IMG/VR virus record: IMGVR_UViG_3300029873_000373
Source of the DNA: a virus
Taxonomy: Duplodnaviria; Heunggongvirae; Uroviricota; Caudoviricetes
Direction: 5' to 3' (one strand)
Length of the DNA: 17,506 nt
The translations under genes and the position numbers were made by a program. The notes beneath the pieces are model-generated. The model made no database searches. It saw nothing but the letters and a program-made list of their open reading frames with translations, and was not told the DNA's origin. Each line of letters begins with the position of its first letter. The stretch's first letter is position 1. This document shows, piece after piece, positions 6,786 to 10,921 of the stretch.

Positions 6786-6976
6786 GGACGCACCTCCGCC
6801 GTAGTTACGTATTTAACCGGGCTACCTTTCATTGAGATGGTTTCACACATCTCTGCCGCTTTCAGTTCCGCTGTTTTTCTGGATTTATAGCGACGGTGCC
6901 AGACAGATACATCCGTGCGAACTGATACATCGTTTCTGTATTCCGTAGTGGAGATGATGATTTCGTAACTAATCAT
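6782..6976 (-). CDS. Hypothetical small phage protein (64 aa)
   Basis: ATG 6976 preceded by AAGGAGGT; ATGA overlap with the Rha-like gene stop. Confidence 0.45.
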   Translation of the reverse strand: MISYEIIISTTEYRNDVSVRTDVSVWHRRYKSRKTAELKAAEMCETISMKGSPVKYVTTAEVRP

Positions 6977-7833
6977 GGGCGAACCTCCTTGTCAGAACCA
7001 TTCAGCCTGGAATCAACAAGTGCAGCGCCAAAAACAGCATCACCAACACGGTCGTACAGTTTGCTAGCCAGCGGAGATTCAACGGCCTTAAGCATTGGAT
7101 AAAGCTGGCTTGTCCAGATTTGATGGATTTCACGCAAATGCAGGTATACGCCTCTGGCGTTTCGTGCGACAGCTGACATATCAGACGCATCGGCACCTGA
7201 TAAACTCTTCTCCATCAGGTTAAAGGCGTTGATGTATGCCTCTTTGAACCGGGCAGCACGTTTACCAGTGAAGCCCATGGCAAGAAACGCAAAACCGTCG
7301 CGGGTGATTTGGTAACAAGGGAGCTTGCGTGTACCACCGTTCGGTTGATTTACCGAAATCGATGTCTCCGCAAAATTGCGGGCACAAAACTCAGGGGAAC
7401 AATCCAGAGTGCGGATCTTTTTCAGCACATCGTCATGACGCTTGGAGAAGAAGTTGGCAACAGCCAAAGAAGTGGTAACGGCCTGGCCGTTGTCAATGGT
7501 GATTTCAGGTTGAGTGAGGGCTGGGATCGTAGCCATGATGGCAGCCTCCGTTGACAGTGAAAAACTTCCACCACCGGAAACGCCAATTTCACTGGTGGTG
7601 AACTGGACGGGGTTGGCGTAACCGGCGTCAACGGAGACCGGCGCACCTTTCGGTGCCCCCGCCCAGCCCACCATAATCTGGATGTGAGCAAATGCGGACG
7701 ATAAAAAAGACGCTGGCGCGTCATACATCGCCGTTGACAATTTCAGGACGCCAATCCCGGCACCCGCTTTATAAGGTGCGGAGACAGTGTAACGTCCCGG
7801 AATTGCAGAATCAATATGCTGGTGGCGGATCAT
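6973..7833 (-). CDS. Rha-family phage regulatory protein with a ~99-aa N-terminal module of unknown function
   Basis: Rha-like core ITIDNGQAVTTSLAVANFFSKRHDDVLKKI ... TRDGFAFLAMGFTGKRAARFKEAYINAFN; ATG 7833 has SD GGGAGGTG. An in-frame internal ATG at 7536 with SD GGAGG lies exactly at the module/Rha junction. Confidence 0.7.
   Translation of the reverse strand: MIRHQHIDSAIPGRYTVSAPYKAGAGIGVLKLSTAMYDAPASFLSSAFAHIQIMVGWAGAPKGAPVSVDAGYANPVQFTTSEIGVSGGGSFSLSTEAAIMATIPALTQPEITIDNGQAVTTSLAVANFFSKRHDDVLKKIRTLDCSPEFCARNFAETSISVNQPNGGTRKLPCYQITRDGFAFLAMGFTGKRAARFKEAYINAFNLMEKSLSGADASDMSAVARNARGVYLHLREIHQIWTSQLYPMLKAVESPLASKLYDRVGDAVFGAALVDSRLNGSDKEVRP
7537..7833. repeat. Copy 1 of a ~300-bp duplicated coding module (N-terminal domain of the first Rha paralog)
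   Basis: Near-identical DNA to 8193-8492, e.g. shared CCCGCTTTATAAGGTGCGGAGACAGTGTAACGTCCCG and GACGATAAAAAAGACGCTGGCGCGTCATA. Confidence 0.85.
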
Positions 7834-8492
7834 AGGTGCACCTCCCGTTGATTACGACGGAACGCGGAGTGACCCTGGACGGTTTCAGCCTCATGGAATG
7901 CTTCAATACAGCTCTCGTAGTACCGCATTGTGCGCAGACTTAACCCAAGCTGAAGCATCATCAGACCATCAAGGGTGATGTAATAACCACGCAGGGAGTC
8001 ACCGTAGATGTGATAAGTACCCGGTATGAAATTGCGGGTAAAAAACCCGCGTGAGCAGTTCAGATACTCGATTTTGTCAACGATGTTCTGGTGCATGCGC
8101 TTGAAATGGCAGGCAACATGCAGGGAGAAAATAACGGCCTTGCCGTTGACGACTTCGATTTTTAGGAATGGGGAAGTTAGGACAGTAGCCATGATGGCAG
8201 CCTCCGTATGCAATGGATAACTTCCACCACCGGAGCTGCGAAACTCATGGGTGGTGAACTGAACAGGGTTCGCAGTACCGGCGCATACGGAAACCGGCGA
8301 GCCTTTCGGCTCCCCTGCCCAGCCCACCATAATTCTGGCGTGCGTGAGCGCGGACGATAAAAAAGACGCTGGCGCGTCATATATCGCCGTATGCAATTCC
8401 GGGCTGCGACCCCCGGCACCCGCTTTATAAGGTGCGGAGACAGTGTAACGTCCCGAAATTGCAGAATCAATATTTGGTCTTGAAATGATCAT
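7830..8492 (-). CDS. Rha-family regulatory protein paralog (divergent Rha domain) carrying the same N-terminal module
   Basis: N-terminal 100 aa about 75% identical to the adjacent gene; Rha-like IEVVNGKAVIFSLHVACHFKRMHQNIVDKI. ATG 8492 has no SD; internal ATG 8192 has GGAGG and may be the true start. Confidence 0.6.
   Translation of the reverse strand: MIISRPNIDSAISGRYTVSAPYKAGAGGRSPELHTAIYDAPASFLSSALTHARIMVGWAGEPKGSPVSVCAGTANPVQFTTHEFRSSGGGSYPLHTEAAIMATVLTSPFLKIEVVNGKAVIFSLHVACHFKRMHQNIVDKIEYLNCSRGFFTRNFIPGTYHIYGDSLRGYYITLDGLMMLQLGLSLRTMRYYESCIEAFHEAETVQGHSAFRRNQREVHL
8193..8492. repeat. Copy 2 of the ~300-bp duplicated coding module
   Basis: Same as above; differences are substitutions only, many at third codon positions of the minus-strand frame. 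Confidence 0.85.
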
Positions 8493-8601: not shown

Positions 8602-9308
8602 CACCGCTGCCAACCAATAACCTGAAATAACCCCATTTTCGGGTGATACCAGCGAGTCCCTCGCGGTTCTGCTTCCTCCATAATCCGATAAAAAGCAGCC
8701 ATAAACGGTTCCACAGCAACAATTGCGCGACGTGACAACAATCCGTCCGGCGTCATGAACTCATGGGTGTCTGTAGGAATCTGATAGGCGTTCACCAGAT
8801 TGCGGCATTTATCATCTGACAAACCGGTTTTTGCTTTCAGTTGGCGATATCCGGCATAGCCCTCACGAATAGTGCCCTTTTTAATTTGCTCGACTGTTTC
8901 AGCAACGTGGCTGACTTTTTCTTCCACCTGAGTGATCCGTTTCTGTTGGCGAACGGCTTCAAGAGCCATCGCGGCAACCATTTCGATTTCGCTCATTGGC
9001 TTACGGATCTGTTCTTCCAGTTCGCGCCAGCGATCTACCAGGCGAGCTGTGAATTCAGGACAGAGCTGTGCGACGACAATGATGCTGTCGCGCTTACCTC
9101 GTTCACCTTCGAATACATACGCGCTAGAAAATCGGCGAGGCCCAAGTGATTGTTTATTCTCAATTTCCACAGTCTGTGGAAATTGGATGATTCCCTTTTT
9201 AGCCAGTGTTTCAATAGTTCTCTTAACACTATCTGGTCGGCTTCCCACCAGCTCTGCGATCTCAACGCTGGTCATGGATGCTTTGCCGTTAAAAATTGCG
9301 GTGTTCAT
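8601..9308 (-). CDS. Rha-family phage regulatory protein (antirepressor-like)
   Basis: 235 aa; N-terminal MTSVEIAELVGSRPDSVKRTIETLAKKGII fits the Rha-domain pattern; coiled-coil-like middle; SD AGGAGA before ATG 9308. Confidence 0.7.
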   Translation of the reverse strand: MNTAIFNGKASMTSVEIAELVGSRPDSVKRTIETLAKKGIIQFPQTVEIENKQSLGPRRFSSAYVFEGERGKRDSIIVVAQLCPEFTARLVDRWRELEEQIRKPMSEIEMVAAMALEAVRQQKRITQVEEKVSHVAETVEQIKKGTIREGYAGYRQLKAKTGLSDDKCRNLVNAYQIPTDTHEFMTPDGLLSRRAIVAVEPFMAAFYRIMEEAEPRGTRWYHPKMGLFQVIGWQR

Positions 9309-9532
9309 TGTTGGTCTCCTGTGGGCTTGTCATCTTCTGTATTCGCTAGACTTGGGTGTGTATATGGAATGCTCGGATCCAGATGACAAAGAATGGCAAC
9401 ATCCTCCGGAACACCTCGCGTTTTCCACTTTCCAACACCTTGACTGCCACGAGGCCTTCCTTTCTTTGGGAACCTGCGACCAATAGCGGCATTGGTTTTA
9501 AATTGAATTTTTAATATTTCATAAAGGGTCAT
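9305..9532 (-). CDS. Candidate first ORF of the early-right operon (75 aa, basic, no recognisable HTH)
   Basis: ATG 9532 lies about 30 nt downstream of the predicted PR start; ATGA overlap with the Rha gene; weak SD; low-complexity basic sequence, so it may be non-coding leader. Confidence 0.3.
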   Translation of the reverse strand: MTLYEILKIQFKTNAAIGRRFPKKGRPRGSQGVGKWKTRGVPEDVAILCHLDPSIPYTHPSLANTEDDKPTGDQQ

Positions 9533-9549: not shown

Positions 9550-9622
9550 GATACTTTGTTATCCAACGATGTTAACCATAGGAACCCAAAGTATCAAGAA
9601 ATTCTGTTACTTTAGTATCAAC
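9550..9622. promoter_or_regulatory. Rightward-operator/promoter-like region (divergent PR/PRM analogue) with repeated operator motif
   Basis: Motif CAAAGTATCAA at 9587-9597, TTTAGTATCAAC at 9611-9622 and inverted GATACTTTG at 9550-9558. Candidate minus-strand promoter: -35 TTGATA (rc of 9592-9597), 17-bp spacer, -10 TAACAT (rc of 9569-9574). Confidence 0.5.
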
Positions 9623-9643: not shown

Positions 9644-10300
9644 ATGAAGTCTTTAGGTGAACGTCTCATCAACGCACGGCAAAAAGCTGGGTTAACACAA
9701 GATGCGTTGGCTAAAAAAGCTGGGGTCACCAGAGTTGCAATAAGTAAAGCCGAGCAAGGCCTTACAAAAAGTTTCAACGGTGACACCCTTTTTAAAGTTG
9801 CAGCTGCACTGCGGTGTTCACCGCAGTGGCTTCAGAACGGAGATGAAAAAGATAAGCATTGGGAAAATAATGTTAAGAGCTGCCCACAGAGAGACACAGC
9901 ACACTCTTACCCTGTAATTAACTGGGTTCAGGCAGGATTATTCGCAACTTCTGGTGATGACTACAACATGTATGATCAGGATAATTGGAGGCATTCTGTA
10001 AAATACGCTGGTGAGAGGGGGTTCTGGCTGGAAGTGCACGGAGACTCAATGACTTCGCCCGTAGGAATAACATTTCCTGAAGGAATGTCGATCCTTGTCA
10101 ACCCAGATAAAGAAGTTTTTTCAGGGTGTTACGTCATCGCCAGAAAAAAATCCACCAATGAAGCAACATTCAAAAAATATATTTCTGACATGGGAAAGGC
10201 GTTTCTAAAGCCCCTTAATCCACAATATCCAATCATAGAAATGGACAATGATTGCGAAATAGTAGGTGTTGTGGTTGATGCCAGATGGGATATTTTCTGA
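9644..10300 (+). CDS. cI: CI-like prophage repressor (XRE-family HTH plus LexA/S24 peptidase-like C-terminal domain)
   Basis: 218 aa; SD GAGGAGAAG before ATG 9644; HTH LINARQKAGLTQDALAKKAGVTRVAISKAEQG; S24 catalytic context GDSM ... ATFKKY; divergent from the early-right operon. Confidence 0.9.
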   Translation: MKSLGERLINARQKAGLTQDALAKKAGVTRVAISKAEQGLTKSFNGDTLFKVAAALRCSPQWLQNGDEKDKHWENNVKSCPQRDTAHSYPVINWVQAGLFATSGDDYNMYDQDNWRHSVKYAGERGFWLEVHGDSMTSPVGITFPEGMSILVNPDKEVFSGCYVIARKKSTNEATFKKYISDMGKAFLKPLNPQYPIIEMDNDCEIVGVVVDARWDIF

Positions 10301-10305
10301 CCAGA

Positions 10306-10333
10306 CACAAAACACAAAACACAAAACACAAAA
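10306..10333. repeat. Perfect heptamer tandem repeat (CACAAAA)x4
   Basis: Four exact 7-bp units directly after the cI stop codon and before the leftward operator motif. Confidence 0.9.
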
Positions 10334-10338
10334 AGAAA

Positions 10339-10386
10339 CCAAAGTATCAAAAATCACTTGCCACGACTTGATACCTTAGTTACCAT
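10339..10386 (+). promoter_or_regulatory. Leftward-operator/promoter-like region (PL/OL analogue)
   Basis: Same operator motif as the rightward region: CCAAAGTATCAA (10339-10350) and inverted TTGATACCTTAG (10368-10379). Candidate promoter -35 TTGCCA (10358-10363), 17-bp spacer, -10 TACCAT (10381-10386). Confidence 0.45.
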
Positions 10387-10417
10387 AAAACAAAGTTCGT
10401 AACTGAGGTATCATCTC

Positions 10418-10921
10418 ATGATCAATAAAGCTACAACTCTTGACTGTCTCGAAGAACTGAAAAACCTCGGCAGCCTCATTACACTAATAGCAAAAGCAAC
10501 ACCTGATGCTACGCTCTCTAGCGATATAGAGTCATGCGCAGGACTGGCATGGGATATGACAAATAGCATATCCAGAAAGCTATCGTCAGCAATGCTTTTA
10601 CAGAACAAAAATTCTGCAATCAACAACCGTCTTCGCACCCAACGCGAAGCCTGCGGCTTAACAACCGCCGAACTCGCCAGGCTGCTCGATCTCGATGAAG
10701 AAATCATCATTCAGTGGGAGAGCGGAGAGTATGAACCAACCATCAGTATGCTTATCCCACTGGCAAATATTCTTGGCTGCGATCCGATGTGGCTGTTAAC
10801 TGGCGAGGTTACTCCTCCGGAGCAACCAAAAAGTGAGGAGCAGCAACACCATGACGCATCTCAACAAGTTTGCCCCTTATCTCGCGAAGCTCTTCTGCGG
10901 AAGAACCAATACCAATGGTGA
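10418..10921 (+). CDS. XRE-family HTH protein with ~70-aa N-terminal extension, in the position lambda N occupies
   Basis: 167 aa; SD TGAGGT before ATG 10418; HTH LRTQREACGLTTAELARLLDLDEEIIIQWESGEYEPTISMLIPLANILGCDPMWLLTGE; no arginine-rich N-like motif. Confidence 0.6.
   Translation: MINKATTLDCLEELKNLGSLITLIAKATPDATLSSDIESCAGLAWDMTNSISRKLSSAMLLQNKNSAINNRLRTQREACGLTTAELARLLDLDEEIIIQWESGEYEPTISMLIPLANILGCDPMWLLTGEVTPPEQPKSEEQQHHDASQQVCPLSREALLRKNQYQW

Follow-up and report, generated by a model that had tools for sequence, protein, structure and literature searches.

Six imperfect dyads around the cI gene of a yecE-integrated lambdoid prophage are the probable operators of the phiP27 immunity type

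Introduction

Which DNA sites does the repressor of a phiP27-type prophage read, and how are they arranged around its gene? The question is raised by a stretch of 17,506 nucleotides from a virus of the Caudoviricetes (IMG/VR record IMGVR_UViG_3300029873_000373), here called the window, in which a short motif recurs on both sides of a lambda cI-type gene. The original prediction, made from the letters of the sequence, described three copies of this motif upstream of cI and two downstream, each group overlapping a plausible sigma-70 promoter, and read the half-site and its spacing as a hint of an unusual binding geometry.

Papers on Stx phages sort CI proteins into clades or types and report Rha genes beside cI. 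The open full-text literature that we searched offered such CI classification only and no operator mapping for the CI type of the window, and the operator sequence of the phiP27-type immunity group seems to be previously undescribed.

Results

The immunity module of a phiP27-type prophage

Over its whole length the window is 98-99% identical to E. coli chromosomal prophages integrated beside yecE/yecN, in which the genes follow the order integrase and excisionase, early-left genes, cI, a divergent small gene, Rha, replication genes and Q. The nearest deposited phages are phiP27 (94.6% DNA identity), with the same immunity region and a cI that is 98% identical, and then a set of Stx1a/Stx2a phages of this CI type (~85% DNA and 93% cI identity); phiP27 and the Stx phages carry the same six sites that we describe below for the window. 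The window carries the immunity region of a lambdoid prophage that sits at yecE and belongs to the phiP27 type of immunity; unlike the Stx1a/Stx2a phages, it holds no stx gene. Its OR region was present in 197 of the 5,426 complete E. coli genomes. Three genes frame the two intergenic regions of interest:

9305..9532, minus strand: Cro-position gene, 75 aa, divergent from cI and the first gene under the predicted PR
9644..10300, plus strand: cI repressor gene, 218 aa, with Pfam domains HTH_3 (1.6e-14) and Peptidase_S24 (3.2e-22)
10418..10921, plus strand: first PL gene, 167 aa, with a C-terminal HTH_3 domain, at the position of lambda N

The cI protein is homologous to the full-length lambda repressor (3bdn, E 9e-34) and keeps the Ala-Gly cleavage site (QAG), the serine of GDSM and the lysine of FKK. 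Its N-terminal domain matched 434 Cro (7e-9) and P22 c2 (1e-8), and is closer to that type than to lambda. The nearest characterised repressor among phage records was P22 c2, at 44.5% identity over the full length and with a homologous N-terminal domain, and no repressor in these records fell between 60 and 90% identity to the cI of the window. These matches describe a homologue of lambda cI whose DNA-binding domain resembles that of P22 c2. Its C-terminal domain, ~50% identical to that of lambda cI, still has both the Ala-Gly site and the Ser/Lys dyad; the protein would therefore be expected to dimerise, to bind with pairwise cooperativity and to cleave itself under stimulation by RecA, allowing SOS induction.

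An in-frame ATG at 9569, which would add 25 codons to cI, was rejected as the start because it overlaps the predicted PR -10, and all annotations use 9644, which has a Shine-Dalgarno sequence; automatic ORF callers could nevertheless mis-start the gene there. The 167-aa protein belongs to phrog_4739 (without assigned function) and its C-terminal half resembles a PHROG annotated as 'CII-like regulator'. This half of the gene shares 91-99% DNA identity with otherwise unrelated phages, and the N-terminal half is variable.

Each copy of the motif is one arm of a dyad

The five motif copies reported in the original prediction were all recovered, with 0-2 mismatches each:

9550-9558: GATACTTTG, exact reverse complement of CAAAGTATC
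9587-9597: CAAAGTATCAA, exact
9611-9622: TTTAGTATCAAC, two mismatches, in the AAA part
10339-10350: CCAAAGTATCAA, exact
10368-10379: TTGATACCTTAG, reverse complement CTAAGGTATCAA, one mismatch

Counted across the whole window, the 9-mer with one mismatch occurred 7 times against 4.07 expected, a number reached in 19 of 200 shuffles and thus not significant, so that a dyad pattern was needed to reveal the signal. Every copy proved to be the more conserved of the two arms in a 14-bp dyad, GATAC-N4-GTATC, which together with its flanks spans 18 bp (TTGATAC-N4-GTATCAA; consensus TTGATAC-TTTA-GTATCAA). Six such dyads were found, all imperfect, with the arm consensus G-A-(T/A)-A-C N4 G-T-(A/T)-T-C. 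They are given here with the scores of a weight matrix that was trained on relatives only:

9550-9563: O-a (OR1-like), GATAC-TTTG-TTATC, 9/10 arm matches, matrix score 12.8, fifth best in the window
9582-9595: O-b (OR2-like), GAACC-CAAA-GTATC, 8/10 arm matches, matrix score 15.6
9606-9619: O-c (OR3-like), GTTAC-TTTA-GTATC, exact GWWAC-N4-GTATC, matrix score 20.0, the site nearest cI
10335-10348: OL-a, GAAAC-CAAA-GTATC, matrix score 21.2, the top score of the window
10370-10383: OL-b, GATAC-CTTA-GTTAC, matrix score 19.2
10399-10412: OL-c, GTAAC-TGAG-GTATC, exact dyad pattern, matrix score 10.5, marginal alone

The sixth site, OL-c, amends the predicted count: the three sites to the left of cI stood, and the two to its right proved to be three. 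Weak dyads occur on both sides, O-b being the weakest of the three left-hand sites and OL-c the weak one on the right.

Several counts set these dyads apart from the rest of the window. The pentamers GTATC/GATAC were concentrated in the two intergenic regions, whose 228 nt hold 6 of the 37 in the window (P = 8e-6), and GWWAC-N4-GTATC occurred four times, always in these regions, against 0.10 expected. In the arms opposite the exact pentamers, 21/30 positions agreed with GATAC (P = 3e-7); every one of these six partner arms had the outer G as well as the inner C. Within the two intergenic regions only these six positions reached at least 8/10 arm matches, and no other repeated dyad was found there. 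The weight matrix ranked exactly these six first in the 17.5 kb (scores 21.2-10.5, next 5.6), a test that is not fully independent of the window because the training relatives are homologous DNA; the score of OL-c was no better than the top match of a typical shuffle.

The original prediction had seen no obvious palindrome in the motif. We therefore weighed the possibility that (C)AAAGTATCAA is a truly non-palindromic element in mixed orientation, bound in an unusual manner by monomers or through asymmetric, tandem contacts rather than by a dimer on a dyad. As an exact direct repeat, CCAAAGTATCAA is indeed found at both O-b and OL-a, and in every site the GTATC arm is far better conserved than its partner. 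In lambda operators, however, a consensus arm paired with a weaker one is the norm. Every copy in the window faces an inverted G(A/T)(A/T)AC arm across a fixed 4-bp gap, perfect palindromes stand at these positions in relatives, and operators of the P22 c2 type share the arm-N4-arm geometry; moreover, the repressor has a DNA-binding domain of the P22 c2/434 type, known from solved structures as a dimer on dyad operators. A non-palindromic element is, on this evidence, very unlikely, and the notion of an unusual geometry was not borne out.

Between the cI stop codon and OL-a lies a perfect heptamer repeat, (ACACAAA) x 4.1 (10305-10333), whose copy number varies among otherwise near-identical prophages.

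The sites are conserved at fixed positions in diverged relatives

We aligned eight loci, comprising the window, phiP27, two Stx phages and four E. coli chromosomes. Exactly three dyad sites flanked cI on each side in 8/8 of these, with centres 32 and 24 bp apart on the cro side (8/8); on the other side, the centres of OL-a and OL-b were 35-36 bp apart and those of OL-b and OL-c 29 or 26 bp. Two relatives carry perfect palindromes, GATACTTAAGTATC at the O-a position of Stx2_12E129 and GATACTTTAGTATC at the OL-a position of strain JNEC-KY171 (locus L041), whose OR region is only 71% identical. The OL-c core was unchanged in 8/8 aligned loci.

A wider set of variants, comprising 26 distinct OR and 30 distinct OL sequences from 75 loci, allowed single columns to be compared. 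Only 12/60 arm columns varied, compared with 74/104 of the other intergenic columns (Fisher P = 2e-10), and the 4-bp centres were intermediate. OL-c was again unchanged in 28/30 distinct OL sequences, the other two having TGGG for TGAG in the uncontacted centre.

Beyond E. coli, relatives in Klebsiella, Salmonella, Citrobacter, Yersinia, Providencia and Photorhabdus were reached via homologues of the Cro-position protein and their contigs; a scan of species-representative genomes with cI itself returned nothing closer than 51% identity. In the seven enterobacterial genera in which the cI helix reads V(T/S)RVAISKAE(Q/L)G, the three OR sites at 32/24 bp and the OL-a/OL-b pair were kept in intergenic DNA that has otherwise diverged. 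O-a was present at the same position in all seven, GAATCCAAAGTATCAA was identical at O-b in 5/7, and O-c was conserved in all relatives. As to the third right-hand site, Photorhabdus and Providencia have a strong GAAACCAAAGTATC at the equivalent place downstream of PL, and no equivalent was found in the relatives from Klebsiella, Salmonella, Citrobacter and Yersinia. A motif search in related prophages, one of the checks proposed with the original prediction, thus found the sites at the same positions both in E. coli loci and in other genera.

The arms change together with the recognition helix of cI

If cI is the protein that reads these sites, the arms should differ where its recognition helix differs. 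A Serratia prophage offers this comparison: its cI is 51% identical to that of the window and has the helix VSRMAISKIEMG, and TAAAC-N4-GTTTA stands at the same three OR positions (32/24 bp) as well as at the OL positions (34 bp), two of the Serratia sites being perfect palindromes. In P22-type phages, a further helix, SN(V/A)AISQWER, goes with the arms TTAAG-N4-CTTAA. That the arms change when the recognition helix of cI changes supports cI as their reader, although the co-variation comes from one clear heteroimmune relative (Serratia) and a less clear one (L136) and so represents few independent changes.

Taken together, we put the probability that the six dyads are the operators of the cI repressor at roughly 80%. 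Each would most likely be bound by a cI dimer through its P22 c2/434-like helix-turn-helix.

Sites of this kind could also be genuine operators whose main or only ligand is another regulator, with the target of cI lying elsewhere, and three further proteins of DNA-binding type (the Cro-like protein, the 167-aa HTH protein and Rha) are encoded beside them. The first of these has no Pfam or PDB match by sequence, and its sole PHROG match, phrog_4749, is annotated as 'unknown function'. Given that no sequence match was informative, its fold had to be predicted, and the model obtained is Cro-like. Where the turn from helix 2 to helix 3 is usually short, this family has a basic insertion of nine residues (PKKGRPRGS). 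The predicted helix 3, SQ(G/A)VGKW, was unchanged in all homologues (P0001-P0042), including those of phages with different arms, as was the inner core AC-TTTA-GT of the sites, which would be compatible with a Cro-like reader. The arms, however, co-vary with the recognition helix of cI and not with that of the Cro-like protein. Relatives from Klebsiella, Salmonella and Citrobacter retain the sites but have unrelated genes in place of the 167-aa HTH gene, and the two intergenic regions contain no second repeated dyad. Another main ligand is hence unlikely. Because Cro normally shares the repressor sites in switches of this sort, binding by the Cro-like protein, which is probable, would add to the reading of the dyads as cI operators and not compete with it.

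The sites overlap the predicted early promoters

A promoter scan returned both of the sigma-70 pairs that had been proposed, each with 9/12 matches:

9569..9597, minus strand: predicted PR, -35 TTGATA (9597..9592), 17-bp spacer, -10 TAACAT (9574..9569)
10358..10386, plus strand: predicted PL, -35 TTGCCA, 17-bp spacer, -10 TACCAT

The predicted PR points leftward to the cro-like gene and the predicted PL rightward to the early-left genes. At the position of PR, the top-scoring pair of the intergenic region was found in 8/8 genera examined, reading TTGATA-17-TAnnnT in the seven that share the recognition helix and TTGCCA-17-TACCTT in Serratia. The position of PL held the top-scoring pair in 5/8 genera, and in Serratia this pair was shifted by 1 bp; among the 30 distinct E. 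coli OL sequences its -10 was unchanged in 30/30 and its -35 in 24/30, single-base variants accounting for the other six.

On the cro side, the PR -35 falls in the right arm of O-b and its flank, the -10 occupies the 14-bp gap between the predicted footprints of O-a and O-b, and the predicted start (~9562) is covered by O-a at its edge. On the opposite side, OL-a stops 10 bp short of the PL -35, OL-b fills the spacer and overlaps the -10, and OL-c falls at about +7 to +20 of a transcript predicted to start at ~10393, where it covers the GAGG that forms the ribosome-binding site for the first PL gene. Such an arrangement is consistent with repression of the two predicted early promoters. With O-a on the predicted PR start and O-b on its -35, occupancy would shut off cro and the Rha/replication operon. 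The right-hand sites may act similarly, from upstream of the PL -35 (OL-a), in its spacer and -10 (OL-b), and on the early transcript with its ribosome-binding site (OL-c). O-c, next to cI, would limit cI transcription at high repressor levels.

The overlap of arms and promoters raises the possibility that TTGATA/GTATCAA is conserved only as a promoter -35 element, the dyads being a by-product. The predicted PR -35 hexamer is indeed the TTGATA that flanks O-b, and the arm consensus TTGATAC resembles TTGACA. On the other hand, a -10 partner stands at the proper distance for only 1/6 sites, the -35 of PL is a separate hexamer (TTGCCA) between two sites, and arms lying outside any predicted promoter hexamer are equally conserved. 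We regard it as the least probable of the explanations considered.

A pair scan of the window OR and of its relatives returned no convincing maintenance promoter for cI, nor could activation by the middle site be placed. The best plus-strand pair in the window OR is a low-confidence candidate:

9591..9618, plus strand: candidate cI maintenance promoter, GTATCA-16-TAGTAT, 7/12

No other candidate recurred at one position throughout the relatives. Its -35 coincides with that of PR on the opposite strand, and its -10 is overlapped by O-c. Serratia has an equivalent, GTGGCA-16-TAGTTT (7/12); the other genera have GTATCA-16-TAGT(A/T)T at that position, but other plus-strand pairs score higher in them. 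Of three possibilities weighed for the -10 or the whole of PRM, none was accepted. TACTTT (9608-9613) is unchanged as a -10 in 26/26 OR sequences, but the middle operator would cover its own -35; TAGTAT (9613-9618), the -10 of the low-confidence candidate, varies at its key second position among E. coli variants; and TTGTAT-17-TAGAAT, which scores 8/12 in four other genera, is degenerate in E. coli and would be repressed by cI. This last element lies on the plus strand in Salmonella, Klebsiella, Citrobacter and Yersinia (L126, L129, L134, L135), where it overlaps PR back to back; the pair draws on the right arm of O-a together with the left arm of O-b, 'weak' yet conserved. Its degenerate counterpart in the window is TTGTTA-17-TAGGAA (9557-9585).

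Likeness to the P22 and lambda switches

A scan of a P22-type genome showed two arms around a 4-bp centre and three sites between cro and c2, as in the window, and the two share the gene layout with a divergent cro. The P22-type OL pair, 35 bp apart and straddling the PL -35, also matches the spacing of OL-a and OL-b. The two systems differ in their arms (GATAC in the window, TTAAG in P22) and recognition helices (TRVAISKAEQ and SNVAISQWER, respectively), and in the spacing of the OR sites, which is 32/24 bp in the window compared with 23/25 bp in P22. The third OL site lies downstream of the predicted PL start in the window and upstream in P22. In addition, a leader of ~25 nt that includes a Shine-Dalgarno sequence precedes cI in the window, whereas in the P22-type genome OR3 lies directly against the start codon of c2, and the Cro-like protein belongs to a different, unannotated family from P22 Cro.

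With lambda, the window shares three operators on each side of cI that overlap divergent early promoters (predicted in the window), with one consensus and one weaker arm per operator. Lambda operators are 17 bp long, with arms unlike those found here, and are spaced 24/23 bp apart. Because O-a and O-b are 32 bp apart, as opposed to 23-24 bp in P22 and lambda, pairwise cooperativity between them cannot simply be assumed.

The early operons diverge further from lambda in gene content. The window has no N-like gene at the PL position, and at the position of lambda cII its PR operon carries Rha and Ash/Rha genes with small RNAs; O/P-like replication genes follow further downstream, as in lambda. 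The RNAs comprise two tandem copies of the C4 antisense RNA (RF01695, 81 and 83 bits), each preceded by isrK (RF01394, 62 and 59 bits):

7591-7678 and 7703-7779, minus strand: one of the two RNA pairs
8247-8334 and 8359-8435, minus strand: the other RNA pair

They are situated within the 5' parts of two tandem 'Ash + Rha' ORFs (6973..7833 and 7830..8492), so that the Pfam Phage_ASH 'domain' coincides here with RNA genes of the P1/P7 c4-ant and Gifsy-1 isrK type. This arrangement suggests that the PR operon may be under a second, RNA-based layer of antirepressor control.

Discussion

The dyads found here place three sites of one consensus on either side of cI, tripartite on each side as in P22-type phages and lambda. 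They flank a lambda cI-type gene and overlap the best sigma-70-like promoters of their regions, and in this in silico form the lambda-like OR/OL logic of the original prediction holds. In layout, the locus thus looks to be an ordinary lambda/P22-type tripartite switch, with modest points of difference: the 32-bp spacing of O-a and O-b, the third right-hand site, downstream of the predicted promoter, a cI promoter with only a weak candidate, and a Cro-like helix that does not follow the arms.

A more far-reaching interpretation is that the switch is wired unlike that of lambda in three linked ways. First, the PR-side operators, 32 bp or three helical turns apart, would leave the PR -10 exposed between them. 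Second, PR and the only candidate cI promoter would use one common -35 region of the middle operator, each on its own strand. Third, the Cro-like family, for which there is no Pfam model, may combine its basic insertion with a helix held constant while the cI helix and the arms have changed; such constancy across differing cI helices and arms suggests that Cro reads the inner core AC-TTTA-GT and cI the outer bases. If true, heteroimmune phages of this family would share a cross-acting Cro. We consider this combined interpretation doubtful.

The sites may bear on a phenotype of Stx phages. The CI-4 type has been linked to higher induction, Stx2 production and virulence in mice (Nakamura et al., bioRxiv 10.1101/2024.03.06.583675), with the molecular basis in the early region stated by its authors as unknown (bioRxiv 10.1101/2024.03.06.583675). 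Judging by the phage name and the reported distribution, CI-4 is probably the CI of Stx2_12E129_yecE, which is 93% identical to that of the window and has the same operators.

What the analysis provides is a consensus for the operators, with the coordinates of six sites, in an immunity type that is frequent among E. coli genomes and occurs in phiP27 and in Stx1a/Stx2a phages. The lambda/P22 paradigm gains a member by this, rather than a new mechanism or principle, and with the operators known, induction-threshold experiments and predictions of cross-immunity would become straightforward.
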